From assembly GCA_014729505.1 (NCBI GenBank), contig WJJS01000001.1, forward strand, positions 12,938 through 76,937: a DNA stretch of 64,000 nt. The letters run 5' to 3'. Both the position numbers and the translations under genes were made by a program. Shown one piece after another: positions 1 to 57,716 of this stretch. This stretch comes from Candidatus Woesearchaeota archaeon. GTDB lineage: Archaea; Nanobdellota; Nanobdellia; Woesearchaeales; ARS49. How positions within the stretch are numbered: position 1 is the first letter of the stretch; the number at the start of each line of letters is the position of its first letter. A model generated the notes under the pieces. The model had not been told where the DNA came from. It made no database searches and saw only the letters and a program-made list of their open reading frames with translations.

Positions 1-2013
1 AATAACAAGACGACCAGTGCATTTATTTTCCATAACCTTCTCAGCCCGTAGTAACAATTTCTCAGCAAACAACGGACAATCAATAACAAGACTTTCAAAC
101 TCCCCGCCCTCGCCAGCAACATTAAGACCTCTCTTTTCATGTAACCGCTGCAACTGTTTCACATCATCTCTGGTAATACTCCTGCCAAGCCACGACTCAT
201 CAAGACCATCACCAGCAATAGCAGTAAACCACAACACAAAACCATGATCGAGCAATTCGCGCATCTGCACCTCTTGAGGCTTATGCCACAAAGGAGAAAA
301 CATCTTGAGACCGAGCTCGTCACAAATACGCTCGATACGATCGCGCTGATATGTAGAAAACAAGGCCCCCGTTACGATACCTTGAATACCATACTGCTCT
401 TTTGCCGCACGAATAGTATGTTGCAGATCCAACAATTCCTTTTCCTTTTCACCAATAGTATTACCAATAACAAGAGGCAGACCCATTGATTGAGCCTGAA
501 GTGTTGTCAAATCAATAGTTGGCGTATGAAACATGAACGAATCAGGATTAGATGATTTCATCGTTATCAAACACGTCAACTCATAATTCTGCCTTTTCAT
601 AACATAAGCGGCATACGTACTGTCTTTACCTCCGCTAAATAGAACACCAAGCTTAACATTATGAGAAGGATAGAACTGAAGAAGATATTGTGACTTTAAG
701 AGTCCCTGTCGTTTTGCAAGTTTACCAATCGCATGATCAATTTTTGAACCGTACTGAGCAGCAATTTTCTTACGAGAAGCAAACTCCTCGGGAACACCCC
801 ATTCGCGAGCAATATCTCTTAACAATAACTTAGTAAGATCTCCAGAAATCTTATACTCGCCAGGAACACGCAACACATACTCGACAAGCGAACGATCAAG
901 AAAAGGAAGACGCAATTCAAGATGCAAAGCCATCGTAATAACATCATCACGATATAAATCACGCTCATACATCTTCAACAAACCCCACACACATTCCTTG
1001 TTCACATCCAGAGCCTTTTTATGACGTTCATACCCTGCAAAAATCTCCTCACTACCAAGACCAGAAAAAACAACCTTGCAACCATCCTCTTTAGCCAATT
1101 CACAAGCAAGAAAAAAAGTCAGTGCAACACCAACCTTCACCACATTAGAATCCTCAATAAGAGGAACAATACGAGACAAATACTGTGGAATATCATCTCT
1201 AGCAAGCTCGCGGACTTTAAGAGGTACGTCAAGAGCACGGGCAGCCCTTATAGCAGCATCAAGATCCTTAGCATTCGCATCTTTGATAGCCGCAGTGTAC
1301 AACGTGACTTCATGTCCATGATCCTTGAAATATTTAGCAAGAACAGTGCTATCCAAGCCACCACTAAACAACAATCCAATTTTTTGATGAGGAATTCGCT
1401 TTTTAATAGCCTCATCGAGCAAAGCTGCAGTTCTTGATTTAATACACTCATACGATTCAGTATGTTCGGGAAGATGCGTGACAAAAGAACGTTGTTGCCA
1501 AGAAACCGTATGAGAAGACACCTCAAAGAAAAGCAGTTGGCGAGGAATGAGTTCCTGCACATTTTCATACCCGAGATTCTCGAGCACTTTTTTTTCAGAA
1601 GCAAACGCAAAGACCTCGGTCGTATACACATACCACAATGGTTTGACACCAAACAAATCACGAGCAAGTAATAGTTGACCATCCCTTAGATACGCAAACG
1701 CAAAGACGCCGTCAAGAGAGGAGAGACACTCCTGACCGGACTCGTCGAGTACTCTGAGAAGAGCCTCCGCGTCATTTGCAGCATCAAGAACCAGTTCTTT
1801 CCAATTATAAATCTCACAATTAGCGACAAGCGTTCCACGACCAGACAAGGGCTGAGCAACATGATCAACAACAGCATGCAACGTATGACCAAGACAGCCG
1901 CCAGGCACCGGCTTCAATGCCTGTCCATCACGACCCCTCTCTTTAAGCAAACAAAGCGCTCTGCGTACCTGGGACTCTGCAGACGGGCCAAAAATACCTA
2001 CAATACCACACAT
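1..2013 (-). CDS. Fusion protein, 3' end off-window: glutamine-dependent asparagine synthase-like (GATase-II + PP-loop) followed by a Dph6/MJ0570-like PP-loop ATPase domain
   Basis: Hand translation of the minus strand; the ORF is absent from the track because it runs off the left edge. ATG at 2013 gives MCGIVGIFGP (Ntn Cys2). Further motifs: NCEIYNW, SGGLDS (1348-1365), LELRLPFLD. It continues in frame with no stop into LGVLFSGGKDS (619-636), SFMFHTP, FSPLWHK, GEGGEFESLVIDCP. Confidence 0.8.
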   Translation of the reverse strand, partial: MCGIVGIFGPSAESQVRRALCLLKERGRDGQALKPVPGGCLGHTLHAVVDHVAQPLSGRGTLVANCEIYNWKELVLDAANDAEALLRVLDESGQECLSSLDGVFAFAYLRDGQLLLARDLFGVKPLWYVYTTEVFAFASEKKVLENLGYENVQELIPRQLLFFEVSSHTVSWQQRSFVTHLPEHTESYECIKSRTAALLDEAIKKRIPHQKIGLLFSGGLDSTVLAKYFKDHGHEVTLYTAAIKDANAKDLDAAIRAARALDVPLKVRELARDDIPQYLSRIVPLIEDSNVVKVGVALTFFLACELAKEDGCKVVFSGLGSEEIFAGYERHKKALDVNKECVWGLLKMYERDLYRDDVITMALHLELRLPFLDRSLVEYVLRVPGEYKISGDLTKLLLRDIAREWGVPEEFASRKKIAAQYGSKIDHAIGKLAKRQGLLKSQYLLQFYPSHNVKLGVLFSGGKDSTYAAYVMKRQNYELTCLITMKSSNPDSFMFHTPTIDLTTLQAQSMGLPLVIGNTIGEKEKELLDLQHTIRAAKEQYGIQGIVTGALFSTYQRDRIERICDELGLKMFSPLWHKPQEVQMRELLDHGFVLWFTAIAGDGLDESWLGRSITRDDVKQLQRLHEKRGLNVAGEGGEFESLVIDCPLFAEKLLLRAEKVMENKCTGRLVI

Positions 2014-2054
2014 ACCACAAGAACAGAAAAAACGGTTTAAAAAACCTCTGACAA

Positions 2055-3866
2055 TTATAGATTACTGCGCTCAAGAGCAAGATTATGCGCTTTGATATAA
2101 TTCTCAACAAAATGCTTCCAATCCGCAGTCTCGGCGAGCTTTTTTGCACTAATGCGGTTCTCTGTACGTTCATGCTTTGACAAATGAGCAAAATCGTACA
2201 TGACATCAGTGAGTTTTTGAATCGCCAACTCCTCAGATTGTTTACGAGGAATCACAAAAATACCAGGAAAACGACCCTTAGCCTTGTCCTGCACGTACGA
2301 GCCAAAACCGGCCACGTCAGTAGTAACCGCGCTTACCCCAAGAGCACTAGTCTCAAGAGGAGTATAGCCCCAGGGTTCATAAAATGAGGGAAAGATACCG
2401 AGATTTCCGGCATTCAATGATTCTCGATACGTCAAATCCAACAAACCATCCGCACCCGTCAGATAAATCGGGTAGAACACGACCTTTACAGGATCATCCT
2501 CGTCATTAGCAAGACCTTCTTGACCAAGCATTGATAGAATAGGATCGGACTCTTCATGGTACAAATCATGAGTAGCCACCGGCGGTTTTCCCGACTGTTT
2601 TAGGCGACGAATCTTCACTTTCAAATCCTGCAACAAATCCTTATCAAAAATATTCTCCTTAGAAATTTGCTTTCCAGACACCAGCAAGTACGTTAAAGTA
2701 TTGCGTAACTCCTCGCCGAGATCATCAATATCATCCTTAATATCAAAAAAGTGAGAACGATTCTCCAACAATTCTGATTTAATGCTCTTCATACCGGCAG
2801 GAACCCAAAAGAACGTGATGATTGTCTTATTGGTTTTTTCCTTTTTGAGCCTCTCATTAAGACGGCTCAAGGACTTAATCAGCACATCAATACCCTTATC
2901 ATGAAACTCGTACCTTCCAGCGATAAAATAAATCAGCGTGTTTTCCAAATCAAACTCGTAATAAGGAAAAAAATAGTACATAAGAAACGTATGAATGCGT
3001 TGCTTAAAGATACGATGACGCACAGCAGATTCATCAAGAGTGGGAAACTTCGCAAAATCAAGACCATTTGTCACAATCACGTCGGGTTTTCTACCCAAAA
3101 ACTTCTCAGCCTCGGCACCAGTAATCGCACTAACAGTCGTAAACACATCAGCCTCACGAGCACAAATACGCTCCATCTGCACCTTTGCCCACAAGCCAGG
3201 ACCATGACGCTGCGCTTCACTTGGAGAAATAGAATCAAGCTGGTAAATATCCACTTTATTTGTTGCAAGAGTCCTGCCAAGCATAGTAGCATGAGTGGTG
3301 AATACGGATCCAAGAGGGACATTTCTGTCTTTACAATAGAGTAAAGCCGCACCAGACATCCATTCATGAGTATGCAACACTGTTTTTTTGTTGAAGATAC
3401 CGGTCAATTCCTCAACAACACGACCAACCGCCCAGGCCCACACGACAGGCTCATCAAAATCGTGATACTGCGTCGACAAAGAATCAAGCTTGAAACGCTC
3501 CCATAACAAGGTTTTTATCTCATTATTCTTATACTGGAAATCAGTATAATCAACAAGCATAACCTTAGGGGTGCCCTTAATCAACCATTGACCAGTATGC
3601 ACTTCAATGCCGACTTGTTTTAACCGTTCAAAGCAATCTTTGCACTGTTCGGGTACGGGGGTCTCCTCAAAAATACCGCGCAATTTATCAGGAAAATACG
3701 GTCCGATAAGGTAATAATTCTCATAATTCTCCTGCATAGAAGGAGCTTTAGACGTGACAACAGTGTAGATACCGCCAACTTTATTGCACACTTCCCACGA
3801 CACTTCAAAGAGAAGATCAGCACGAGGATCCATACGCTCATTCACGACTGCCGCGTATATAAACAT
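2055..3866 (-). CDS. Glycogen synthase, GT3 (eukaryote-like) family
   Basis: 603-aa ORF. The N-terminal LLFEVSWEVCNKVGGIYTVV is the hallmark of GT3 glycogen synthases. An alternative start at M12 (3833) is possible. Confidence 0.75.
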   Translation of the reverse strand: MFIYAAVVNERMDPRADLLFEVSWEVCNKVGGIYTVVTSKAPSMQENYENYYLIGPYFPDKLRGIFEETPVPEQCKDCFERLKQVGIEVHTGQWLIKGTPKVMLVDYTDFQYKNNEIKTLLWERFKLDSLSTQYHDFDEPVVWAWAVGRVVEELTGIFNKKTVLHTHEWMSGAALLYCKDRNVPLGSVFTTHATMLGRTLATNKVDIYQLDSISPSEAQRHGPGLWAKVQMERICAREADVFTTVSAITGAEAEKFLGRKPDVIVTNGLDFAKFPTLDESAVRHRIFKQRIHTFLMYYFFPYYEFDLENTLIYFIAGRYEFHDKGIDVLIKSLSRLNERLKKEKTNKTIITFFWVPAGMKSIKSELLENRSHFFDIKDDIDDLGEELRNTLTYLLVSGKQISKENIFDKDLLQDLKVKIRRLKQSGKPPVATHDLYHEESDPILSMLGQEGLANDEDDPVKVVFYPIYLTGADGLLDLTYRESLNAGNLGIFPSFYEPWGYTPLETSALGVSAVTTDVAGFGSYVQDKAKGRFPGIFVIPRKQSEELAIQKLTDVMYDFAHLSKHERTENRISAKKLAETADWKHFVENYIKAHNLALERSNL

Positions 3867-8344: not shown

Positions 8345-9133
8345 TTATAAAGGTTTCGGTGATTGGCGATACTGATAATAGAGTATTGCGCTGCCCGCGA
8401 TACACATAACGATATTGAACACCTGACCCAAGGTCAAACCAAGCAGACTTGGTTCGCCCACACGCAAAAACTCAGTACAAAAGCGAAACACTGCATATAA
8501 AATGAGCCAGATCGCAAGAAGACTTCCCGGACGAAGACCGCGATCACGCAAAAGCCACAGCACTACAAAAATAACAACATTATACGCGACTTCATACAAC
8601 TGGTTTGGATGACGAAACACCAATTGACCAAAAGCGTCAGTTTCACCACCAAAATTAACACCCCAGGGAAGCGACGTGACACGACCAAACAGTTCGCCAT
8701 TAATGAAATTACCCATCCTGCCAAAGGCTTGCCCAAGGGAAAGCGGCACAATCAAAAGATCGCCAAGCGAGAGCAACGATAAGCCAAAACGACGAGCAAG
8801 AATATACGCAGTAATAATCATCGCTACAAGAGAACCATGAAAACTAAGACCACCCTTCCAAATAGCAAGAATTTCAACAGGATGAGCAAAATAATAACCG
8901 GGCTGCCAAAACAGAACCTCAAACAGCCGCGCTCCAATAATCAACGCAACAACAAGCCAGACCATGAGCGAGTCCAACTGCTCAAGAGTAAGCGCAGTCT
9001 TTTCTTGACGAATACGACGACGAACATACCAGTACGCAAACAAAAAGGCCAAGACGTACATCACGCCATACCAATGAATCCTCAAAGGGCCAATACTAAT
9101 GAGGACCGGATCAATCGTGTGAATCCATACCAT
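8345..9133 (-). CDS. lgt: Prolipoprotein diacylglyceryl transferase
   Basis: 262-aa polytopic ORF. IDPVLISIGPLRIHWYGVMY, WKGGLSFHG, GRMGNFINGELFGR and HPNQLYE align along the whole length with bacterial Lgt. Confidence 0.9.
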   Translation of the reverse strand: MVWIHTIDPVLISIGPLRIHWYGVMYVLAFLFAYWYVRRRIRQEKTALTLEQLDSLMVWLVVALIIGARLFEVLFWQPGYYFAHPVEILAIWKGGLSFHGSLVAMIITAYILARRFGLSLLSLGDLLIVPLSLGQAFGRMGNFINGELFGRVTSLPWGVNFGGETDAFGQLVFRHPNQLYEVAYNVVIFVVLWLLRDRGLRPGSLLAIWLILYAVFRFCTEFLRVGEPSLLGLTLGQVFNIVMCIAGSAILYYQYRQSPKPL

Positions 9134-20135: not shown

Positions 20136-20253
20136 GGCGGAGTGGCTTAGCCTGGTTAGAGCACCGCGCTCATAGGTCATACCTTTGAGCACTGAGCTTT
20201 CGAGCTATGACGAAGAAACGCGGGGGTCACGAGTTCAAATCTCGTCTCCGCCA
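20136..20253 (+). tRNA. tRNA-Met/Ile2-type (anticodon CAT) with a 43-nt canonical intron (37/38)
   Basis: Acceptor GGCGGAG/CTCCGCC, anticodon arm CCGCG-CTCATA[intron]A-CGCGG, T arm ACGAG-TTCAAAT-CTCGT, discriminator A, T6 run after. G1:C72 argues against an initiator. Confidence 0.8.
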
Positions 20254-26346: not shown

Positions 26347-28515
26347 CTATTGCGCGTCGGTCAAACCCTTTCTCTCACGGATTTGTTTGACAACCTTGTC
26401 CTGCAATTCTCCTGGGAGCCGTTCAAAGACCTGATCGACGAGAGAACTGTTTCCACGACCGCCAGTCGCACTACGCAATTCTGAACTCCATCCAAACATC
26501 TCGGCGACAGGAAGCTTTGCACGAATCATCACCATAATATTCTCCTGATTCATATCAAGCAATTGTCCGCGTTTGTTACTGATCAATTTACTGACATCGC
26601 CCATATGCTCGACGGGAGCATCGATTTGGTGAATTTGCTTAGGTTCGTAAAGCACAGGAGTTGCCGCCATGATAGCCTGACGAATACCGTCGCGAACAGC
26701 AGGATACATCTGCGCAGGACCGCGGTGGATCGCATCCTCGTGAAGCTTTGCATCCATCAAAGAAACCTTCACTTTAACACAAGGCTCTCGCGCAACAGGA
26801 CCTGCATTCATAACATCTTCAAACATGTCAAGAACCATTTCCATAATCTCGTTAATCTGCACAATTCCTCTCGTCAAATCAAGAAAGACACAACCGTTAT
26901 GGATATCCTTAACACTCAATGCAACCTTGTTATCCCAACCGCAAGCAACAAGCACGTCACGCATTTCCAGATCTTTCTTTTTAACGCGACCTTCACTAAT
27001 CTTACCTTCTCTGATAGCATCAATAACTTCTTGTTCGAGAGGTTCAACCTTGAAGTACAACTTGTTGTGCTTATTAGGAGATTTTCCTTCAAAAGTATCA
27101 GATTCTCTTGTAACATTTTCACGATACACGACGATAGGAGGACTAGTTTTTACCTCAACACCCTTCTCAGACTTAATACGATTCTCAATAATTTCAAGAT
27201 GCAATTCTCCCATGCCGTGAATCAAGTGTTCGCCTGTCTCCTCATTGATCTCGACTTTAAGCGTAGGATCCTCCTTGACAACCATTCTCAACACTTCAAT
27301 AAGTTTTGGAAGATCGCTAGGTTTTTTTGCCTCAATAGCTTTAGAGACAACAGGCTCAAAAATGTGTGTGATCTCTTCAAAAGGCTCGGTAGGTTCTGTA
27401 GTAATCGTCTCACCAGGAAACGCTTTGACGCCAGCCAAACCAATAACATTACCAGCAGGACTACTCGGCACAATATCACGCTTTGCACCATTAAAGACAA
27501 AAACCTGCTGAATACGACTGGGCATCTTGGCGCGATTCAAATATACACTATCGCCTTTACTAATAGTGCCGGAAAAAATGCGACCACAGGAAATCTCACC
27601 AGCCTGAGGATCGACGACAACCTTAGTGATACAAATAAAAGTAGGCCCTTTTGGATTTGCTGCAAGAAGAGACTTGCCCTCCTCACTTTCAAGATCTCCC
27701 TTCCACAATTTAGGAATGCGATATTTTTGAGCCTGCGTAGGACTTGGATGATGTCGAATACACATGTTAAGAATCACTTCATGAATAGGTGCTTTTTTCT
27801 GCAAGACCTTATACGCTTCACCGCCCTGTTCATATGCATCAATAATATCCTTAAACCCAATATTATTTCTTTGCATATACGGAACTGAAAGTGCCCAATT
27901 ATGAAATGCACTGCCAAAAGCAACAGTACCATTTTGTACATCAACCTGCCACTCCTTCTTATATTCTGCAGGAGCAATGTTTGCGATAAGCTTATTCACT
28001 TCACCAATCACCTTCAAAAAACGCTCCTGCATTTTGTCAGGGGCAAGCTGCAATTCCTTTATCAAACGATCAACCTTATTGATGAACAAAACAGGCTTAA
28101 CACGCTCTTTTAGAGCCTGACGCAAAACCGTCTCGGTTTGAGGCATAATACCCTCAACAGCACACACAAGAACAATCGCACCGTCAATAGCGCGCATAGC
28201 ACGCGTTACGTCACCGCCAAAATCAACGTGACCCGGCGTATCAATAAGATTAATCAAATATTCCTTGCCATCAAACTGATGCACCATTGACACTGCAGCA
28301 CTATCAATAGTAATACCACGAGCCTTTTCATCCTCATGAAAATCAAGAGCGCAAGCCTTACCAGCGAGTAACTCACTCATCATGCCAGCTCCCGCTAAGA
28401 GATTATCAGAAAATGTAGTCTTACCGTGATCAATGTGAGCACAAGTACAAATATTACGGATTTGATCGGGCTTGCTAGAAATTTCTGCAACCCTTTCTGA
28501 CATCTTTTTAGCCAT
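26347..28515 (-). CDS. fusA: Translation elongation factor EF-2
   Basis: 722-aa ORF with AHIDHGKTT, DTPGHVDF, NKVDR and a diphthamide-loop region HEDAIHRGPAQ. Confidence 0.95.
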   Translation of the reverse strand: MAKKMSERVAEISSKPDQIRNICTCAHIDHGKTTFSDNLLAGAGMMSELLAGKACALDFHEDEKARGITIDSAAVSMVHQFDGKEYLINLIDTPGHVDFGGDVTRAMRAIDGAIVLVCAVEGIMPQTETVLRQALKERVKPVLFINKVDRLIKELQLAPDKMQERFLKVIGEVNKLIANIAPAEYKKEWQVDVQNGTVAFGSAFHNWALSVPYMQRNNIGFKDIIDAYEQGGEAYKVLQKKAPIHEVILNMCIRHHPSPTQAQKYRIPKLWKGDLESEEGKSLLAANPKGPTFICITKVVVDPQAGEISCGRIFSGTISKGDSVYLNRAKMPSRIQQVFVFNGAKRDIVPSSPAGNVIGLAGVKAFPGETITTEPTEPFEEITHIFEPVVSKAIEAKKPSDLPKLIEVLRMVVKEDPTLKVEINEETGEHLIHGMGELHLEIIENRIKSEKGVEVKTSPPIVVYRENVTRESDTFEGKSPNKHNKLYFKVEPLEQEVIDAIREGKISEGRVKKKDLEMRDVLVACGWDNKVALSVKDIHNGCVFLDLTRGIVQINEIMEMVLDMFEDVMNAGPVAREPCVKVKVSLMDAKLHEDAIHRGPAQMYPAVRDGIRQAIMAATPVLYEPKQIHQIDAPVEHMGDVSKLISNKRGQLLDMNQENIMVMIRAKLPVAEMFGWSSELRSATGGRGNSSLVDQVFERLPGELQDKVVKQIRERKGLTDAQ

Positions 28516-40009: not shown

Positions 40010-40324
40010 ATGGGACATACCGTATGGAGCCAACGGATGAATGCAGAGCGCATCATCACAGAACTACTTCGTTACAAGAAAGCATTGCGAAGCGAACAAC
40101 AAGCACTGTTTGACGAATTACTGAAACGATCCATGAATCATCTCGGTACCATAAGTTACGCAAACAGCATGCACACCTGGGCATTACTGCTCTTATCAAT
40201 ACTACTAGAACAAGAACAACGCATAAAGAAACTAGAACATGTGGTTAATAGATACCTATCAAAAAAAGAACAAGATCGTCGTGTGGCTGAAAACGAAAAC
40301 GACGAATATGCATCGAACCTATGA
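40010..40324 (+). CDS. Hypothetical helical protein
   Basis: 104-aa ORF, 3 nt after the previous gene. Its last 86 nt overlap the polymerase start in another frame. Confidence 0.4.
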   Translation: MGHTVWSQRMNAERIITELLRYKKALRSEQQALFDELLKRSMNHLGTISYANSMHTWALLLLSILLEQEQRIKKLEHVVNRYLSKKEQDRRVAENENDEYASNL

Positions 40325-42794
40325 GTACTCTGTCACACTCTACGCACACGAAGATGCACGAGAATTCCTTACAACGAACAAGATTGCTTTTACAGAACAA
40401 CTCAAAAAAGATCCTTTTCGCAACAAGAAACATGTTCTTGCCATAACGTTATCATGCGAACGACTCGCACCATTTGTAAGATGGTTTGAACTCGGCACCA
40501 AACACCGCATACCGCTTTACAATGCAGATATCACGCCGGAACAACGCTTTCTTTACGAGAACAAGCTAGTACCGTGCAGCAACGTGCGAGACGTTGATGG
40601 GAGACTTGTACACGTCAACGAATCCGCACCACCGCTAAGCACTGTTCATTTGCGATGCGCCACACAAGGACCTATTACACGATTAGAATACCAGGATCAC
40701 ACTATCGTAGGCGAGGAACGAGAAGTACTCGCGCATTTTACGCAACGCTTCAGACAGGACGATCCAGATGTACTACTTATGCGACGAGCATACAAAGCAG
40801 TACCACATCTCTTTGAACGGTTACGTGCGAACGGATTGCACGTGCCTTTTCATCGATGGGATGAGATACCGCTGCGCCACCGCGGCGGCAAGACACACTT
40901 CAGTTACGGAAGAGTATATTATCAAGATCACTCGTTTCAACTGCGAGGACGATTACTCGTTGACACGGCAAGCAGTGTAGGATCAACATGCTCTGTACCT
41001 GCAATCATCGAACTTGCACAGCTCACAGGCACTCGATTCCAACGCGTAGCAGCACGCAGTTTCGGTGCCTCATTTCAACTTCAACTCGTCAAAGAACTGC
41101 TCGCCCAAGATCTGCTTGTGCCATACAAGGAAAAACCCTTTGATGAACCGCTGCGCATGACAGAGTTATTCGACGCAGACAGAGCAGGACATACCTTTGA
41201 TCCTCAACTAGGATTTCACAATGATGTTGTAGCAATAGACTTCTCAAGCATGTATCCATGGATCATCCACAACTACAACATCAGCGCAGATACCATACTC
41301 ACAAAAAAAGGAAAGAAGACCAAGATTCCTGCAGTACCAATTGATGTAACCACACAATATCAAGGAGTGATACCAAAAGCAATCAAACCATTGTTAGATC
41401 GACGCATGTACTACAAAAAACATCCGACGCCGGAAAACAAACGACGAGCAATAGGACTAAAAACACTGCTCGTGACCTGTTATGGTTATCTGCGATTTCG
41501 CGAATTTAAAATGGGACTTGCCACATCACACATGGCAATTTGTTCATACGCGCGAGAACTCCTCCTACAATCAGCAACGCTTGCAGAAGAACAAGGCTTT
41601 CGCGTCATTCACGGCATCATCGATTCACTCTACATATCAAAAAAAGACATTACCACAACAGAAGTCGAAACATTTCGAAAAGAACTAGAACACATGAGCG
41701 GTATACCCGTTGCCTGCGATGGCATCTTCAAATGGATCGTGTTTCTTTCACGACGACATGACAACACTGTCGGAGTGCCGGCCCGTTATTTTGGCGCATA
41801 TAAAAATGGTGGCATTAAAGCAAGAGGTATTGAAGTACGACAATCGAGTGCGCCGCTACTTATACGACGATTCCAACAAAACGTGTTAGAAGAGCTCGCA
41901 GCGTTTTCAACGAAAAGAGCGATACAGGATCACTTGCCACAAGTCATGAAACGCGCACGAGCAGTCCTGCACGATCTGCCTGCGACGCCACGAGAAGAAC
42001 TGTGTTGCAGAATACGCATCAGTAAGACCACGTATTCTCGAAACATTCCACAACGGCAAGTGATACGCTTGTTAACACAACAAGGGAGAGACATTATCGC
42101 TGGACAGGTCATACGGTTCTGGTACAGTGCGAATGGACCGTTACTAGTCGATATGACTGGAAGGCCAGACTACAAAAAATATCGCGATTTGTTATTACGC
42201 GCAATACACTCAGTGTACCAGCCTTTCGGTTATACTACCAAACAACTACAACACCTCCTATTAGACGAATATCAAAGCGTTCTGCAAGATTTTGCGCGAC
42301 AACAGATCCGCTACGAATACGTGCCTATGAAAAAACACTATGCACAAAAACGAGGACTGTCAGAGAGAATCCTGCGACAACGACTGGAACGACAAGGATG
42401 GACGGTGTGGCGCGGCGGCAGCATACATATTACTCGTTATGAAGAACTGTATCCCAACGTACGACGAAAGTACGAATTACTCATCCGTCTGCTTGACGAT
42501 CATAAGCCAGACACAAAAGAAATACTGCAATATTATTGCATGATACAGCACGGCATGCCAGATTTTCTCTGCTACAAAAATGGACGATTCAAATTTGTTG
42601 AATGCAAATTGCAATACGAGCAATTAAGTCATCGACAAAAACGCTGCATTATGAAGCTACAAGACCTGGGATTTGATGTGGAAGTTCACAAACTCGTTGA
42701 CAAACGCACAAAAATGAGAGAGGCACTAGTTGACATGTTTACCAATTGCAAAATAGTACGAGAACGACAACTAGCCCTACTCTCAACATGGTGA
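40239..42794 (+). CDS. Family-B DNA polymerase lacking recognisable exonuclease motifs, fused to a C-terminal VRR-NUC nuclease domain
   Basis: 851-aa ORF. Pol motifs: A VAIDFSSMYPW (D334), B KTLLVTCYGYL (K408), C HGIIDSLY (D462). No DxE, NxxxFD or YxxxD at the expected sites. The C-terminus (from about aa 700) reads ERQGWTVWR...GMPDFLCYKNGRFKFVECKLQYEQLSHRQKRCIMKLQDLGFDVEVH. Confidence 0.85.
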   Translation: MWLIDTYQKKNKIVVWLKTKTTNMHRTYEYSVTLYAHEDAREFLTTNKIAFTEQLKKDPFRNKKHVLAITLSCERLAPFVRWFELGTKHRIPLYNADITPEQRFLYENKLVPCSNVRDVDGRLVHVNESAPPLSTVHLRCATQGPITRLEYQDHTIVGEEREVLAHFTQRFRQDDPDVLLMRRAYKAVPHLFERLRANGLHVPFHRWDEIPLRHRGGKTHFSYGRVYYQDHSFQLRGRLLVDTASSVGSTCSVPAIIELAQLTGTRFQRVAARSFGASFQLQLVKELLAQDLLVPYKEKPFDEPLRMTELFDADRAGHTFDPQLGFHNDVVAIDFSSMYPWIIHNYNISADTILTKKGKKTKIPAVPIDVTTQYQGVIPKAIKPLLDRRMYYKKHPTPENKRRAIGLKTLLVTCYGYLRFREFKMGLATSHMAICSYARELLLQSATLAEEQGFRVIHGIIDSLYISKKDITTTEVETFRKELEHMSGIPVACDGIFKWIVFLSRRHDNTVGVPARYFGAYKNGGIKARGIEVRQSSAPLLIRRFQQNVLEELAAFSTKRAIQDHLPQVMKRARAVLHDLPATPREELCCRIRISKTTYSRNIPQRQVIRLLTQQGRDIIAGQVIRFWYSANGPLLVDMTGRPDYKKYRDLLLRAIHSVYQPFGYTTKQLQHLLLDEYQSVLQDFARQQIRYEYVPMKKHYAQKRGLSERILRQRLERQGWTVWRGGSIHITRYEELYPNVRRKYELLIRLLDDHKPDTKEILQYYCMIQHGMPDFLCYKNGRFKFVECKLQYEQLSHRQKRCIMKLQDLGFDVEVHKLVDKRTKMREALVDMFTNCKIVRERQLALLSTW

Positions 42795-46145: not shown

Positions 46146-46269
46146 TCCCCGCCCCCGGACTTGAACCAGGAACCTCGCGGTGACGGCTGACTCGCCTTCA
46201 CGTCTCGAGCGTTGCTCGGAATCAGTTGAGTTTCTACAGCCGCGCGCTCTACCATTGAGCTAGGCGGGG
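46146..46269 (-). tRNA. tRNA-Tyr (anticodon GTA) with a 52-nt canonical intron
   Basis: Acceptor CCCCGCC/GGCGGGG (the C1:G72 archaeal Tyr identity pair), anticodon arm CGCGG-CTGTAG[52]A-CCGCG, T arm CCTGG-TTCAAGT-CCGGG, discriminator A. Confidence 0.85.
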
Positions 46270-54187: not shown

Positions 54188-54433
54188 ATGGCAAAAACAA
54201 CCTTCGACGTATCCAAACACGTGCTTGTACCAAAGCACAAAAAGGTGAGTGAAAAGGAGAAAAAAGAATTACAAGAGCGATACTCCCCCTCACTAAAAGA
54301 ACTGCCGCGCATCCTACAAAACGATCCTGCAATACAACATCTCGACATCAAAGAGAACGACGTTATCAAGATCGAACGCAAAAGCATGACTGCAGGAACG
54401 ATCACTTTCTATCGGAGGGTATCGAATGGTTGA
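54188..54433 (+). CDS. rpoH: DNA-directed RNA polymerase subunit H (Rpo5)
   Basis: HVLVPKHKKVSEKEKKELQERY, LPRILQNDPAIQHL and DVIKIERKS. Start trimmed to the ATG at 54188. Confidence 0.85.
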   Translation: MAKTTFDVSKHVLVPKHKKVSEKEKKELQERYSPSLKELPRILQNDPAIQHLDIKENDVIKIERKSMTAGTITFYRRVSNG

Positions 54434-55910
54434 TCAAACACGACTCATTTTACAAAAATTCTTTGAAGAACACAGCTTTGTAGAAAGCGATATTGAATCA
54501 TTCAACCAATTCGTTGACCAACAATTACAGGAAATCATTGACGAAAACAGAGTAATTGAACCTGCGATTATCCCACCGAACGTTGAAAGCTTCAAAATAC
54601 GACTCGACAAAGTATGGGTAACAAAACCAGAAATTACCGAAGCAGACGGCTCGAAACGAATGGTTTATCCGCAAGAAGCAAGACTTCGAAAACTCAGTTA
54701 CGCAGCACCCATCTATCTGGAGATAAGTTCTCACATCAATGACGTACAACGAGAAACGTTTACGACACAAATAGGCAACCTGCCCATTATGCTCAAGAGC
54801 AATTACTGCCACCTCAATAGGTTAAACAGAGACGAACTCTTTGCCAAAGGAGAAGATCCTGATGATCCTGGCGGATACTTCATTATCAACGGTACAGAAA
54901 GAGTACTCGTCAATATTGAAGACCTGGGAGCAAACCGTTTTCTCGTCGAGCGTACGGGAGGAGTATCAAAATACACCGGCAAACTATTCAGTGAAGCGGG
55001 ATCGTACAAAATACCTCACATGATCGAAAGACTCAAAGACGGCATCTTCTACCTCTCATTTACACGAGTAAAACGCATACCGCTGATACTCGTACTCAAA
55101 GCTCTTGGTTTGACAAAAGATGAAGATATCGTACGAACAGTCTCAGACAAAAAACAATACGATGAAGTCCTCATTAACATTTTCGAATACGTCGGTGTAA
55201 AAAATGCAGAAGACGCAATCGATACAATGGCCAAAAAAATTGGCATCACACAAACAAAGGACATACGATTACAACGCATGAGCGAAATCATCGATCGATT
55301 CCTCTTGCCACACCTAGGAACAGAAAAAAGCGACCGCATCAAAAAAGCACATAACTTATGCAAAATGGTGCGCAAGTTTATCGATGTATCAAATGGCAAA
55401 ATGCGAACAGATGACAAAGATCATTATCTCAATAAACGAGTAAAAATGAGCGGCGATCTCCTGGCAGATCTATTGCGCACAAACATCAAAGTACTCATCA
55501 GCGATCTGCTTTACAACTTTCAGCGCATCGTCAAAAGAGGAAAATTTCCAAGCATCAAAGTAATCATCAGAGACCAACTACTCACCATGAGAATATACGG
55601 AGCGATGGCTACAGGAAACTGGGTTGGGGGACGAAAAGGAATAAGCCAACGAATACAACGAACAAACCATCTCAACACCATCAGCTATCTTCAAAAGGTA
55701 GTATCACCACTTTCAACATCACAGGAAAACTTCCTAGCACGTGAACTTCATGCTACACATTTAGGACGACTCTGTCCAAGTGAAACGCCGGAAGGAACAA
55801 ACATCGGGCTACGAAAGAATCTAGCACTACTTGCTTCTGTAAGTAAAGAAGGCAATGAAGAAGAAGTGCACAAAGCATTGCAAGGATTAGGGCTGCGAGG
55901 TTTTGAGTAA
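54426..55910 (+). CDS. rpoB2: DNA-directed RNA polymerase subunit B'' (N-terminal half of Rpo2)
   Basis: 494-aa ORF with GYFIINGTERVLV and LCPSETPEGTNIGL. Confidence 0.95.
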   Translation: MVDQTRLILQKFFEEHSFVESDIESFNQFVDQQLQEIIDENRVIEPAIIPPNVESFKIRLDKVWVTKPEITEADGSKRMVYPQEARLRKLSYAAPIYLEISSHINDVQRETFTTQIGNLPIMLKSNYCHLNRLNRDELFAKGEDPDDPGGYFIINGTERVLVNIEDLGANRFLVERTGGVSKYTGKLFSEAGSYKIPHMIERLKDGIFYLSFTRVKRIPLILVLKALGLTKDEDIVRTVSDKKQYDEVLINIFEYVGVKNAEDAIDTMAKKIGITQTKDIRLQRMSEIIDRFLLPHLGTEKSDRIKKAHNLCKMVRKFIDVSNGKMRTDDKDHYLNKRVKMSGDLLADLLRTNIKVLISDLLYNFQRIVKRGKFPSIKVIIRDQLLTMRIYGAMATGNWVGGRKGISQRIQRTNHLNTISYLQKVVSPLSTSQENFLARELHATHLGRLCPSETPEGTNIGLRKNLALLASVSKEGNEEEVHKALQGLGLRGFE

Positions 55911-57716
55911 ATGGCAACAGAAGTATTTCTCAACGGAAAATATGTCGGTACCGTCGACAATCACAGGGATTTTTTAGACTCGCTCAAGACAGAACGACGA
56001 CGAGGAGCAATCAGTAACAACGTCAATGTACAATACGAAGAACACCTTGATCGCATCCATGTGGAAACCACCAGAGGTCGAACGAGACGACCACTCATCG
56101 TTGTACAAGACGGAAAAAGTCTTATCACCGATGAGATAATCCAACAACTGCAAAAAGGAGAACTCACCTGGAATAATCTAGTGGAGAAAGGTATTATCGA
56201 ATACCTTGATGCAGCAGAAGAAGAAAACGCACTCGTAGCGTTTTACGAAAGAGAACTCACACCATCACACACCCACCTGGAAGTCTCACCATTAGCAATG
56301 TTTGGACTTGTCACATCAATGGTTCCCTACGGCAATTTCAGTCAATCAGCACGATTACTCATTGGAGCAAAAAATCAAAAATACGGAATAGGACTGTACA
56401 CGGCAAACTATCTTCACCGTCTAGATATGGATGTCAATATTCTTCACTACCCGCAAATGCCCATAGTACAATCACTCACACATGGCATATCACGAAATGA
56501 AAAACACCCTGCAGGGCAAAACGTTGTCGTCGCAGTCATGAGCTACAAAGGATACAACATTGAAGACGCAATAATCATCAACAAAGGCAGTGTCGATTTC
56601 GGCTTTGCACGATCTACCTATTTTCGACCGGCAGTTGCAGAAGAACTACGCTACAGCGGAGGACTCACAGACCAGGTCAGTGTGCCGGACAAAGAAGTCA
56701 AAGGCTACAAGTCAGAACGCGATTATCGACATTTAGAAGATGATGGAATAGTATATCCAGAAGCGGTTGTCGGACCAGAAGATGTCATTATCGGAAAAAC
56801 AAGTCCGCCACGATTCCTTTCCTCGCTCGACGAGTACAGCCTTGCAGGAAACATACGACGTGAAAGCTCAGTAGGTCTTAAACACGGAGAAAACGGCGTG
56901 GTCGACTTTGTTGTGCTTACAGAAAACGGAGAAGGAAACAAACTCGTACAAGTCAGACTGCGCGATCAACGATTGCCAGAAATCGGTGACAAATTCACAA
57001 GCCGCGCAGGACAAAAAGGAATAGTCGGACTCATTGTTCCAGAAGCGGATCTTCCTTTCACATCAAACGGTATGACGCCAGACATTATCTTCAGTCCACA
57101 CTCCATACCCGGACGTATGACCGTATCACACTTACTGGAAATGCTCGGCGGAAAAACAGGAGCTCTTGGAGCGCGAAAAGTTGATGCAACATCCTTTAGT
57201 CCAGAACCGGAAGAGCGCATACGACAAGAACTGCTCAGTTTAGGATTCCGTGAAGACGGCACAGAAACACTCTACAATGGTCAGACAGGAGAACGCATAC
57301 AAGCAAAAATCTATGTCGGCTCCATGTACTACCTAAAACTACGACACCTCGTCGCAAACAGAATACAATCACGTGCAAGAGGACCAATACAACTCCTTAC
57401 AAGACAACCAACAGAAGGACGTGCAAAAGAAGGAGGACTTCGACTGGGAGAAATGGAAAAGGACACGCTTGTTGCTCACGGTGCATCACTACTCCTCAAA
57501 GAACGATTTGACTCTGACCAAACACTTGTACCAGTCTGTGAAAGCTGCGGAGTCATAGCAATTCATGACAGTGTAAAAAACAAACGACATTGCCCAATCT
57601 GCGGAGAAGGAGTCGAAGTCTCAGATATCGAGATAAGCTATGCATTCAAACTCATACTGGACGAATTCAAAAGCCTAGGATTATATCCAAAAATGATATT
57701 GGAGAGTAAATACTAA
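55911..57716 (+). CDS. rpoB1: DNA-directed RNA polymerase subunit B' (C-terminal half of Rpo2)
   Basis: 601-aa ORF with GYNIEDAIIINK, GDKFTSRAGQKG, GGLRLGEMEKD and a C-terminal Cys4 ribbon. Confidence 0.95.
   Translation: MATEVFLNGKYVGTVDNHRDFLDSLKTERRRGAISNNVNVQYEEHLDRIHVETTRGRTRRPLIVVQDGKSLITDEIIQQLQKGELTWNNLVEKGIIEYLDAAEEENALVAFYERELTPSHTHLEVSPLAMFGLVTSMVPYGNFSQSARLLIGAKNQKYGIGLYTANYLHRLDMDVNILHYPQMPIVQSLTHGISRNEKHPAGQNVVVAVMSYKGYNIEDAIIINKGSVDFGFARSTYFRPAVAEELRYSGGLTDQVSVPDKEVKGYKSERDYRHLEDDGIVYPEAVVGPEDVIIGKTSPPRFLSSLDEYSLAGNIRRESSVGLKHGENGVVDFVVLTENGEGNKLVQVRLRDQRLPEIGDKFTSRAGQKGIVGLIVPEADLPFTSNGMTPDIIFSPHSIPGRMTVSHLLEMLGGKTGALGARKVDATSFSPEPEERIRQELLSLGFREDGTETLYNGQTGERIQAKIYVGSMYYLKLRHLVANRIQSRARGPIQLLTRQPTEGRAKEGGLRLGEMEKDTLVAHGASLLLKERFDSDQTLVPVCESCGVIAIHDSVKNKRHCPICGEGVEVSDIEISYAFKLILDEFKSLGLYPKMILESKY

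Follow-up and report, generated by a model that had tools for sequence, protein, structure and literature searches.

A conserved AsnB-like amidotransferase-Dph6 fusion in DPANN archaea and its predicted role in diphthamide synthesis

Introduction

Fusions between AsnB (COG0367) and DUF71/COG2102 were reported in Methanohalophilus mahii, Methanosalsum zhilinae and 'Ca. Nanosalinarum' (de Crecy-Lagard et al. 2012, Biol Direct 7:32, Fig. 2C; PMC3541065), where they were described as a feature of 'a few Archaea'. From the architecture it was proposed in that study that glutamine hydrolysis gives the NH3 used for diphthine amidation, and our literature searches found no experimental follow-up to this proposal. 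Yeast YLR143W, the eukaryotic Dph6, also joins a Dph6 domain to domains proposed for ammonia delivery (PMC3541065), but these are two C-terminal RidA/YjgF domains, which have an unrelated fold, are located at the opposite end of the protein and bring no second PP-loop.

The gene analysed here lies at the start of a 64-kb stretch of woesearchaeal DNA (the window). An earlier note, made from the sequence alone, read it as an asparagine-synthase-like enzyme fused to a Dph6-type domain and professed not to know this architecture. Both the architecture and the ammonia-supply hypothesis have been known since 2012 (PMC3541065). Our analysis is therefore mostly corrective, as the architecture is published and widespread, and no discovery is claimed. 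What is added here is a distinct AsnB-like subfamily with invariant substitutions, its stand-alone members in DPANN, a canonical Dph6 module and the presence of EF-2 in the same window.

Results

Reading frame and domain layout

The gene and its domains are located as follows.

1-2013, minus strand: single open reading frame, codons 1-671 of a 680-residue protein with three domains (GAT-II, AsnB-like PP-loop, Dph6), from the stop-free translation and P0001
1489-2013, minus strand: class-II (Ntn) glutamine-amidotransferase domain, residues 1-175, from Pfam GATase_7/GATase_6 and alignments to 6gq3 and 1ct9
673-1461, minus strand: AsnB-type PP-loop (adenylating) domain, residues 185-447, from Pfam Asn_synthase and Foldseek against 1ct9
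649-726, minus strand: domain junction, residues 430-455, from homologue conservation and the secondary structure of the model
1-660, minus strand: Dph6 / diphthine--ammonia ligase domain, residues 452-671 in the window (to residue 680 in the full protein), from TIGR03679, PF01902 and Foldseek

All 671 codons of this frame were observed to be free of stops, while the other two frames of the same strand contain 18 and 70. The NCBI protein P0001 (Candidatus Woesearchaeota, 680 aa) is 100% identical across all 671 residues and supplies the C-terminus that the earlier note wished to see recovered, namely the nine residues TKASLAKKC, whose codons lie together with the stop outside the window, past its start. 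All the motifs quoted in that note (MCGIVGIF, NCEIYNW, SGGLDS, LELRLPFLD, AAQYGSKIDHAIGKLAKRQG, LFSGGKDS, SFMFHTP, GALFSTYQRDRIE, SPLW and GEGGEFESLVIDCP) were found in the translation, and its assignment of the three domains is in agreement with Pfam and NCBIfam profiles. GATase_7 matches residues 50-145, Asn_synthase matches from residue 196 (E 2.7e-49) and Diphthami_syn_2 (PF01902) matches residues 454-666 (E 1.5e-60, 204.9 bits against a cut-off of 23.2); PH1257 and PF0828 match the Dph6 domain at E about 1e-57. The order of GAT-II, Asn_synthase PP-loop and DUF71/Dph6 on one archaeal polypeptide is that of the fusions described in 2012, with which this gene can be placed. Furthermore, the AF2 model of all 680 residues is confident (pLDDT 92, pTM 0.88), which argues for a fixed arrangement of the domains.

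The fusion is genuine and prevails in sampled DPANN

This gene is a real single-gene fusion of an AsnB-like amidotransferase with Dph6. Each of the 120 protein clusters that match best, at 56-62% identity and with lengths of 675-740 aa, was found to carry PF13537, PF00733 and PF01902 together, so that the co-occurrence of Asn_synthase and Dph6-like domains is borne out by at least 120 clusters with the three-domain architecture. Among species-representative genomes, both modules share one stop-free reading frame at 77 of the 80 best loci. The junction is 24-27 residues long in all 120 homologues, with many positions at least 90% conserved, and the C-terminal helix of the AsnB-like module passes almost straight into the first strand of Dph6. 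A relative is encoded in at least 583 species genomes. The best loci in our scan of species-genome contigs are filled by DPANN, Iainarchaeota/Diapherotrites also carry the fusion, and when a divergent fused member was the query of a homology search, all the matches carried DPANN labels, with no Methanosarcinales fusion among them. The fusion is thus the prevailing form in the sampled Woesearchaeota, Nanoarchaeota and Iainarchaeota genomes, in contrast to the 'few Archaea' of 2012. A few fused representatives (P0140, P0181 and P0222) were observed to lack the N-terminal cysteine and could be gene-call artefacts. Taken with the AF2 model, the number of clusters and loci, the fixed and conserved junction and the occurrence in Iainarchaeota/Diapherotrites suggest that the fusion is under selection.

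An apparent fusion would also arise if the stop between adjacent asnB-like and dph6 genes, near 650-760, had been lost through an error in sequencing or assembly, and related archaea do have stand-alone asnB-like genes (for example at locus L070). The single reading frame is kept in independent assemblies, which rules out that a stop or frameshift was overlooked in the junction, and the window itself has no stop there; a stop or frameshift in this region would have overturned the reading of the earlier note. Since NCBI holds the identical 680-residue protein, the species loci agree, the junction is conserved in both sequence and length and the AF2 model is confident across it, this explanation is effectively refuted and its probability is negligible.

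The C-terminal domain and EF-2

Three features bear on the Dph6 domain and its presumed substrate.

619-636, minus strand: second PP-loop SGGKDS, residues 460-465, from translation and homologue alignment
94-111, minus strand: EGGEFE, residues 635-640, corresponding to Glu183, Glu186 and Glu188 of PF0828, from alignment to 3rjz and invariance
26347-28515, minus strand: archaeal EF-2, the presumed substrate, from Pfam EF-G/EF-2 domains and the diphthamide motif LHEDAIHRGPAQ

The C-terminal domain is well supported as a canonical diphthine--ammonia ligase by both profiles and the structural model. It scores 256.4 bits with TIGR03679 (Dph6_archaeal), above the equivalog cut-off of 197.3. The Dph6-subfamily signature of PF0828 (S44, Y45, E78, Y103, Q104, A149, E183, E186 and E188), which sets Dph6 apart from the B12-salvage DUF71 subgroup (PMC3541065), is represented here by S492, F493, E526, Y555, Q556, G601, E635, E638 and E640, with identity at seven of the nine positions and conservative changes at the other two (Y45F and A149G). 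The position of F493 is a tyrosine in most homologues and that of G601 an alanine in at least 90% of them. Foldseek places the domain on PF0828/PH1257 with target-normalised TM-scores of 0.92-0.96 and rmsd of 1.2-2.4 Å. The C-terminal 229 residues are 40-46% identical to stand-alone archaeal Dph6 (PF0828/PH1257; 3rjz, 3rk0, 3rk1 and 2d13) at an rmsd of 1.2-1.6 Å and target-normalised TM-scores of 0.94-0.96, with the SGGKDS PP-loop, Y555-Q556 and EGGEFE (fusion numbering) in common; the stand-alone form is a single module of about 225 residues without an amidotransferase, whereas the N-terminus of Dph6 in the fusion is joined to the AsnB-like module. QueC, MnmA, TtuA and the PAB0415/TTX_0299 DUF71 subgroups were also considered, and all fall far under their cut-offs. 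The Dph6-type assignment of the earlier note, which a better match to another PP-loop family would have overturned, therefore stands. In addition, EF-2 carries the acceptor His597 (encoded at 26725-26727) within LHEDAIHRGPAQ (H.D..HRG), as expected of a diphthamide substrate.

The amidotransferase domain

Two segments of the glutaminase site are of interest here.

1873-1890, minus strand: GHTLHA motif, residues 42-47, from alignment and homologue invariance
1813-1821, minus strand: N65-C66-E67, oxyanion-hole segment, from alignment to AsnB/ASNS

The domain has the N-terminal cysteine nucleophile (MCGI start) and the class-II GATase fold (Foldseek match) of AsnB. The nucleophile Cys2 and residues Asn65, Glu67 and Asp81 are invariant in 120 homologues, from which the amidotransferase is predicted to be active. 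[quoted passage not shown] Leu45 of the GHTLHA motif, in which His43 and His46 are also invariant, stands where the arginine that binds the glutamine alpha-carboxylate sits (E. coli Arg-49 / human Arg-48), and this leucine is invariant. Cys66 takes the place of the canonical Gly-75 and is likewise invariant among the 120 fused homologues. Because the alpha-carboxylate arginine has been replaced by Leu45, free glutamine is not assured as the amide donor.

The AsnB-like middle domain

Two segments of the middle domain distinguish what is kept from what is lost.

1348-1365, minus strand: first PP-loop SGGLDS, residues 217-222, invariant, from translation and homologue alignment
1045-1065, minus strand: SGLGSEE, residues 317-323, aligned with SGEGSDE of asparagine synthetases, from alignments

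The PP-loop (S217-GGLD-S222) and Lys416, the ATP/PPi lysine (Lys-449/466), are invariant as in AsnB, and so are Asp352 and Arg355 (with Lys416, the equivalents of Asp384, Arg387 and Lys449). Leu319 occupies the position of the catalytic glutamate (human Glu-364 / E. coli Glu-348). All 120 fused homologues have leucine there, and none of the 150 nearest 50%-identity representatives has a glutamate. Neither E364A nor E364Q of human ASNS shows activity, and NH4Cl does not restore it (PMC6748925). The roles of the human residues are taken from that study; E. coli Glu-348 and Arg-49 are alignment equivalents, on whose roles our literature searches returned nothing. Further changes in the pocket relative to AsnB are a glycine at the Lys-376 equivalent and D367 to E.

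The fusion shares with E. coli AsnB (1ct9) and human ASNS (6gq3) the two-domain fold (target-normalised TM-score 0.76-0.80; for 1ct9, 0.80 with rmsd 2.9 Å), the N-terminal cysteine, the glutaminase Asn/Glu/Asp, SGGxDS, the Asp384/Arg387/Lys449 equivalents and E.R.PFLD. It differs from them in having only 22-27% identity, in the replacements Glu-348/364 to Leu, Arg-49/48 to Leu, Gly-75 to Cys and Lys-376 to Gly, and in being about 100 residues shorter (447 aa against about 550). The score with TIGR01536 (AsnB) is 265.3 bits, just below the equivalog cut-off of 267.1, and that with PRK09431 is 200.6 against 499. The label 'asparagine-synthase-like' in the earlier note is therefore to be used with reservation, since the catalytic glutamate and the glutamine-pocket arginine are Leu319 and Leu45. 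Because of these two replacements and the sub-cut-off TIGR01536 score, the N-terminal module is unlikely to be a canonical AsnB.

The alignments set the module apart as a subfamily of its own, in which Leu replaces the catalytic Glu, Leu-His the glutamine-pocket Arg-Leu and, in many members, Cys the oxyanion Gly. The comparison of the two leucine replacements covers DPANN members. The same subfamily also occurs free-standing in DPANN. For example, the stand-alone 'asparagine synthetase B' proteins of Woesearchaeota/Nanoarchaeota (P0137, P0280, P0282 and P0350) are 41-51% identical to the N-terminal two thirds of the fusion and share its H.LH, N(C/G)EIYN and SGLGSEE motifs, but stop where the fusion goes on into Dph6. 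In three contexts of stand-alone genes no dph6 (PF01902) was found within 8 kb, which rules out split fusions beside dph6 in these contexts. As stand-alone members lie away from dph6, the subfamily has, or can have, a role without a covalent link to Dph6.

Genomic surroundings

One element was noted upstream of the gene.

2036-2044, minus strand: TTTTTTAAA, TATA-box-like element at -31 to -23 relative to the ATG, from the sequence only

A gap of 41 nt, which holds TTTTTTAAA, separates the fusion gene from the upstream glycogen-synthase gene, and this element is a possible promoter of its own for the fusion gene. The neighbours (glycogen synthase, P-type ATPase, CBS protein, Lgt, TPR protein and GluRS) show no operon link to dph or asn genes. 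Neither a second dph6 nor a second asnB-like gene was found within the 64-kb window, and no dph2 or dph5 in the parts of it that were checked (30 ORFs with Pfam annotation; Dph2 seed search), while dph2 is present at related DPANN loci. EF-2, EF-1alpha, thermosome and split RpoB give the window an archaeal context.

Discussion

We give about an even chance to the reading that this gene is the diphthamide synthetase (Dph6) in a DPANN archaeon of Woesearchaeota type, in the form of a three-domain enzyme, where the amidotransferase likely supplies ammonia and the AsnB-like middle possibly serves as a conduit or coupling module or in another adenylation. The Dph6 domain would adenylate the diphthine carboxylate on EF-2 His597, and ammonia would displace AMP to give diphthamide. 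The Ntn amidotransferase with its intact cysteine would most likely be the source of this ammonia, with glutamine as the probable amide donor, and such amide-derived ammonia would render the cell independent of free ammonium. The middle domain appears to be rigidly packed between the other two and to keep its ATP/PPi-binding residues. It is probably no asparagine synthetase, because the glutamate for aspartate adenylation is lost, and it may be an ammonia conduit or coupling module, possibly ATP-gated, or may adenylate a different carboxylate. We infer both a transfer of ammonia to the Dph6 site and a loss of asparagine synthesis. The role suggested in the earlier note, delivery of glutamine-derived ammonia to the Dph6 site or coupled amidations, is plausible as a prediction. 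Several observations weigh against the preferred reading, namely the stand-alone AsnB-like members, the missing glutamine arginine and the cysteine-less P0140, P0181 and P0222. The conduit model in particular is opposed by the ammonia tunnels of AsnB-family enzymes, which to our knowledge end in every characterised case at the cognate synthetase site and not at a third domain. In addition, the invariance of the first PP-loop and of Asp352, Arg355 and Lys416 argues for an adenylation activity retained in the middle domain, and a conduit would not need such residues.

These adenylation residues can be accommodated if two amidations take place, where the AsnB-like PP-loop amidates a second, non-aspartate carboxylate with ammonia from GAT-II and Dph6 amidates diphthine. 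This possibility was raised by a reviewer's question in PMC3541065. The second carboxylate could sit on EF-2, another translation component or a small molecule. All the ATP/PPi residues are kept, whereas the pocket for the acyl substrate has changed (E to L, K to G and D367 to E), and the subfamily is also free-standing. AsnB-family enzymes act on varied carboxylates, and the PDB fold matches from Foldseek include beta-lactam synthetase, carbapenam synthetase and TsnB9. However, no candidate second substrate is known, we know of no further amidated residue in archaeal EF-2 and the gene neighbourhoods offer no clue, so that we regard two amidations as rather unlikely.

The fusion could instead be bifunctional, with a divergent but working glutamine-dependent asparagine synthetase and a Dph6 that uses free ammonium, joined for co-expression only. 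The AsnB fold is complete at the TM-score of 0.80 to 1ct9, Cys1, the PP-loop and the Asp384/Arg387/Lys449 equivalents are invariant, and the TIGR01536 cut-off is barely missed. Stand-alone members away from dph6 and the arrival of ammonia at the cognate site in known AsnB enzymes also fit this explanation. It has to contend with an invariant leucine at the Glu-364/Glu-348 position, where the E364A and E364Q replacements kill the human enzyme, and with the loss of the Arg-48/49 and Lys-376 equivalents to Leu and Gly. Furthermore, co-expression alone would not demand that hundreds of DPANN species keep the fusion, together with a junction that is both rigid and conserved, and DPANN genomes are usually without amino-acid biosynthesis. 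We consider a bifunctional enzyme of this kind to be improbable.

For the N-terminal two thirds we tentatively suggest, with more doubt than confidence, a functionally new AsnB-family subfamily, both fused and free in DPANN, which would be no asparagine synthetase but a partner reserved for Dph6, either for nitrogen delivery or for a second adenylation. If this is true, diphthamide synthesis in these organisms would depend on an amide donor and not on ammonium. Database names are misleading here, as the whole 680-residue protein is called 'Diphthine--ammonia ligase' and the free AsnB-like form is listed as 'Asparagine synthetase B' and sometimes as 'diphthine-ammonia ligase'. Since the residue for aspartate activation is absent, taking the gene as evidence for asparagine synthesis in DPANN is probably wrong. 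In vitro work on the amidation, the last step of diphthamide synthesis, uses ammonium. The amidotransferase-Dph6 fusion is the clearest genomic hint that amide nitrogen is channelled into diphthamide in some organisms, and as a single polypeptide it lends itself to tests of the supply of amide nitrogen to diphthamide.

Reading frame and domain composition

The minus-strand frame at window 1-2013 was found to run for 671 codons without a stop, in agreement with the earlier note, and the other two minus-strand frames of this stretch contain 18 and 70 stops. All the motifs quoted in that note were found in the translation, and its reading of three modules is borne out by profile searches:

aa 50-145, class-II glutamine amidotransferase (Pfam GATase_7)
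asparagine-synthase-type PP-loop domain (Pfam PF00733, E 2.7e-49)
aa 454-666, diphthamide-synthase domain (Pfam PF01902, E 1.5e-60)

The C-terminal module scores 256.4 bits against the archaeal Dph6 equivalog TIGR03679 (NCBIfam; cut-off 197.3), so that its assignment to a different PP-loop family fails. The front part scores 265.3 bits against the AsnB equivalog TIGR01536 (NCBIfam), slightly below the cut-off of 267.1. Among proteins of solved structure, aa 455-679 match PH1257 and PF0828 (E about 1e-57), and aa 1-419 match human ASNS and E. coli AsnB (E 1e-22 to 1e-28).

Genuineness and distribution of the fusion

The fusion is genuine. An NCBI protein of 680 aa, P0001, is 100% identical across all 671 window residues and completes the C-terminus with nine further residues, TKASLAKKC; its record is named 'diphthine--ammonia ligase [Candidatus Woesearchaeota archaeon]'. 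PF13537, PF00733 and PF01902 occur together in every one of the 120 top-ranking protein clusters (56-62% identity, 675-740 aa), and both modules lie in one stop-free ORF at 77 of the 80 best loci from species-representative genomes, the remaining three being two loci truncated at a contig end and one true stand-alone (L070). In 120/120 homologues the junction (aa 430-455) measures 24-27 residues, and conservation reaches 90% or more at many of its positions. Because of this identity, these clusters and loci and the conserved junction, a missed stop at 640-760, which would divide the frame into two adjacent genes, is excluded as far as is possible without reads.

Relatives were observed by pattern scan in at least 583 species-representative genomes. 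The nearest are labelled Woesearchaeota, Nanoarchaeota or Nanoarchaeia and remoter fused forms Iainarchaeum or Diapherotrites, so these are all DPANN. Loci L005, L008, L009, L016 and about 25 others lie on species-representative contigs titled 'uncultured Methanosarcinales archaeon' (TPA_asm) and carry a protein closest to the Woesearchaeota gene; these titles are probably wrong labels and the contigs not real Methanosarcinales. In three fused proteins (P0140, P0181 and P0222) the N-terminal Cys is missing along with the first ~60 amidotransferase residues, either through miscalled starts or because these variants may have lost glutaminase activity.

Conserved and replaced residues

The Dph6 module is canonical. 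Its PP-loop, S460-GGKD-S465, is retained in the alignment to PF0828 (3rjz). Dph6-subgroup-specific residues, placed at the modelled EF-2 interface, were listed by de Crecy-Lagard et al. 2012 (PMC3541065). Identical between PF0828 and the fusion are S44=S492, E78=E526, Y103=Y555, Q104=Q556, E183=E635, E186=E638 and E188=E640, and conservative changes were noticed at Y45=F493 and A149=G601, where most homologues have Y and A.

The AsnB-like module is non-canonical, as shown by aligning it to E. coli AsnB and human ASNS residue for residue and by column counts over 120 fused homologues. Invariant and retained in these homologues are the Cys nucleophile C2, the glutaminase-site residues Asn65, Glu67 and Asp81, the PP-loop S217-GGxD-S222, Asp352 (E. 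coli Asp384), Arg355 (E. coli Arg387), E366-x-R368-x-PFLD and Lys416 (E. coli Lys449, human Lys466). Four canonical positions are replaced. In the glutamine-recognition network, the place of E. coli Arg49 (human Arg-48) is taken by an invariant Leu45 with His46 next to it (motif GHTLHA), and Arg at position 45 is absent from all fused representatives. Canonical Gly75 and Lys376 are likewise replaced by invariant Cys66 and Gly344, and E. coli Glu348 (human Glu-364) of SGEGSDE by invariant Leu319 (SGLGSEE).

With aa 1-447 as query, HMMER was run exhaustively over 1.84 billion representatives and retrieved 695 proteins at E <= 1e-30. In the top 150 of these, position 319 is never Glu; it is Leu in 90, V, I, T, N or a similar residue in others, and Gln (SGQGADE) in a remoter group. 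[quoted passage not shown] 2019, PMC6748925). Measured against this, the middle domain, with Leu319 in the place of Glu-364, should be unable to activate aspartate.

Predicted structure

AlphaFold2 (120-sequence alignment) modelled all 680 residues with a mean pLDDT of 92, a pTM of 0.88 and no low-confidence linker, as would be expected of a fixed three-domain assembly and not of beads on a string. Among PDB chains, Foldseek paired the first two domains with AsnB and ASNS (target-normalised TM-score 0.76-0.80) and the third with PF0828 and PH1257 (0.92-0.96). No PDB chain spanning all three domains was found by Foldseek, the top query-normalised TM-score being 0.59.

Free-standing relatives

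The subfamily with H.LH, N(C/G)EIYN and SGLGSEE also occurs as free proteins of 440-510 aa, which end where the fusion enters Dph6. Free and fused forms are interleaved in a neighbour-joining tree, except for one all-free clade of Woesearchaeota and Nanoarchaeota named 'asparagine synthetase B'. No PF01902 gene was found within 8 kb of the free gene in three genomic contexts; therefore, the AsnB-like module can exist without a covalent link to Dph6. In two related DPANN contigs (L081 14915-16128, L082 12961-14267), a half-size Dph2 gene (PF01866, 222-253 aa) immediately followed by a 179-aa DnaJ-domain gene sits 3.5-5.5 kb downstream of the free gene. Dph4 of eukaryotes is a DnaJ protein. The position of the pair near the free gene may be coincidence.

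Annotation drift was also noticed, and it runs both ways. JGI calls P0271 and P0272 (468 aa, without PF01902) 'diphthine-ammonia ligase', NCBI calls the whole 680-aa fusion just 'diphthine--ammonia ligase', and the free form is called 'asparagine synthetase B' by NCBI in spite of its missing catalytic Glu.

Genomic surroundings

The window is archaeal, with genes for EF-2, EF-1alpha, a thermosome subunit, split RpoB and RpoA'. RNA polymerase subunit B is encoded by two adjoining genes (54426-55910 and 55911-57716, +), a split which occurs in some archaeal lineages. Features discussed here are:

2055-3866 (-), glycogen synthase, 41 nt upstream of the fusion gene (PF05693 Glycogen_syn, E 1e-145, full length)
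8345-9133 (-), Lgt, prolipoprotein diacylglyceryl transferase (PF01790, E 1e-70, full length)
26347-28515 (-), EF-2, with diphthamide motif LHEDAIHRGPAQ and acceptor His597
31-23 nt upstream of the fusion gene ATG, TTTTTTAAA element

The TTTTTTAAA element may be the fusion gene's own TATA box. The EF-2 motif and His597 mean that the presumed Dph6 substrate is encoded 24 kb from the fusion gene. The genes next to the fusion gene encode the glycogen synthase, a P-type ATPase, a CBS protein, Lgt, a TPR protein and GluRS, and are unrelated to the diphthamide pathway. Neither a further dph6 or AsnB-like gene nor dph2 turned up in the window, dph2 having been looked for by Pfam annotation of 30 ORFs and a Dph2 seed search. 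PF05693 is the eukaryote-type glycogen synthase family, here in a DPANN archaeon, and Lgt belongs to the bacterial lipoprotein pathway.

Rfam tRNA matches at 20136-20253 (+, 118 nt) and 46146-46269 (-, 124 nt), unreported by ARAGORN in default mode, are probably intron-containing archaeal tRNA genes. An 851-aa ORF at 40239-42794 (+) combines, unusually, a C-terminal VRR-NUC nuclease domain with a weak match to family-B DNA polymerases (E 7e-14). The + strand AT skew is positive in 30/32 2-kb bins, up to 0.35, and GC skew is mostly negative.

Proposed role and relation to published work

The likeliest reading, to which we give about even chances, is that this protein is the organism's diphthamide synthetase, an amidotransferase-fed Dph6. 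The Dph6 domain would adenylate diphthine on EF-2 His597 with ammonia provided by the Ntn amidotransferase domain, and the AsnB-type PP-loop domain, without the aspartate-activating Glu, would be a coupling or conduit module or perform a second adenylation of another kind. Against this model stand chiefly the ATP-site residues of the middle domain, which are invariant, the loss of the Arg for the glutamine carboxylate and the existence of free-standing homologues. It is clearly less probable that the middle domain carries out a second amidation, of something other than aspartate, and two independent activities, real Asn synthesis included, are less probable again, given Leu319 in the middle domain. 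That the fusion is an artefact is scarcely credible beside P0001 and its homologues.

The earlier note's observation is correct, and its interpretation, delivery of glutamine-derived ammonia to the Dph6-like site or two coupled amidations, is reasonable but not new. The fusion belongs to a gene family already described and annotated, and common in DPANN archaea. An AsnB domain (GAT-II + Asn_Synthase_B_C) N-terminal to DUF71 was reported in 'a few Archaea', namely Methanohalophilus mahii, Methanosalsum zhilinae and 'Ca. Nanosalinarum' (de Crecy-Lagard 2012, Biol Direct 7:32, PMC3541065). That paper already suggested that the NH3 used in diphthine amidation comes from glutamine hydrolysed by the AsnB domain. 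A reviewer asked there which PP-loop uses ammonia and what the AsnB-like PP-loop does, which was left unanswered, and we found no later paper on this question. A 2018 survey of archaeal dph genes and a 2019 DPANN review treat split Dph2 and Dph5 phylogeny and do not mention the AsnB-Dph6 fusion. Two points are apparently absent from the papers found. One is that the AsnB-like part forms a separate subfamily without residues essential for asparagine synthetase, the other that this subfamily occurs both fused and free.
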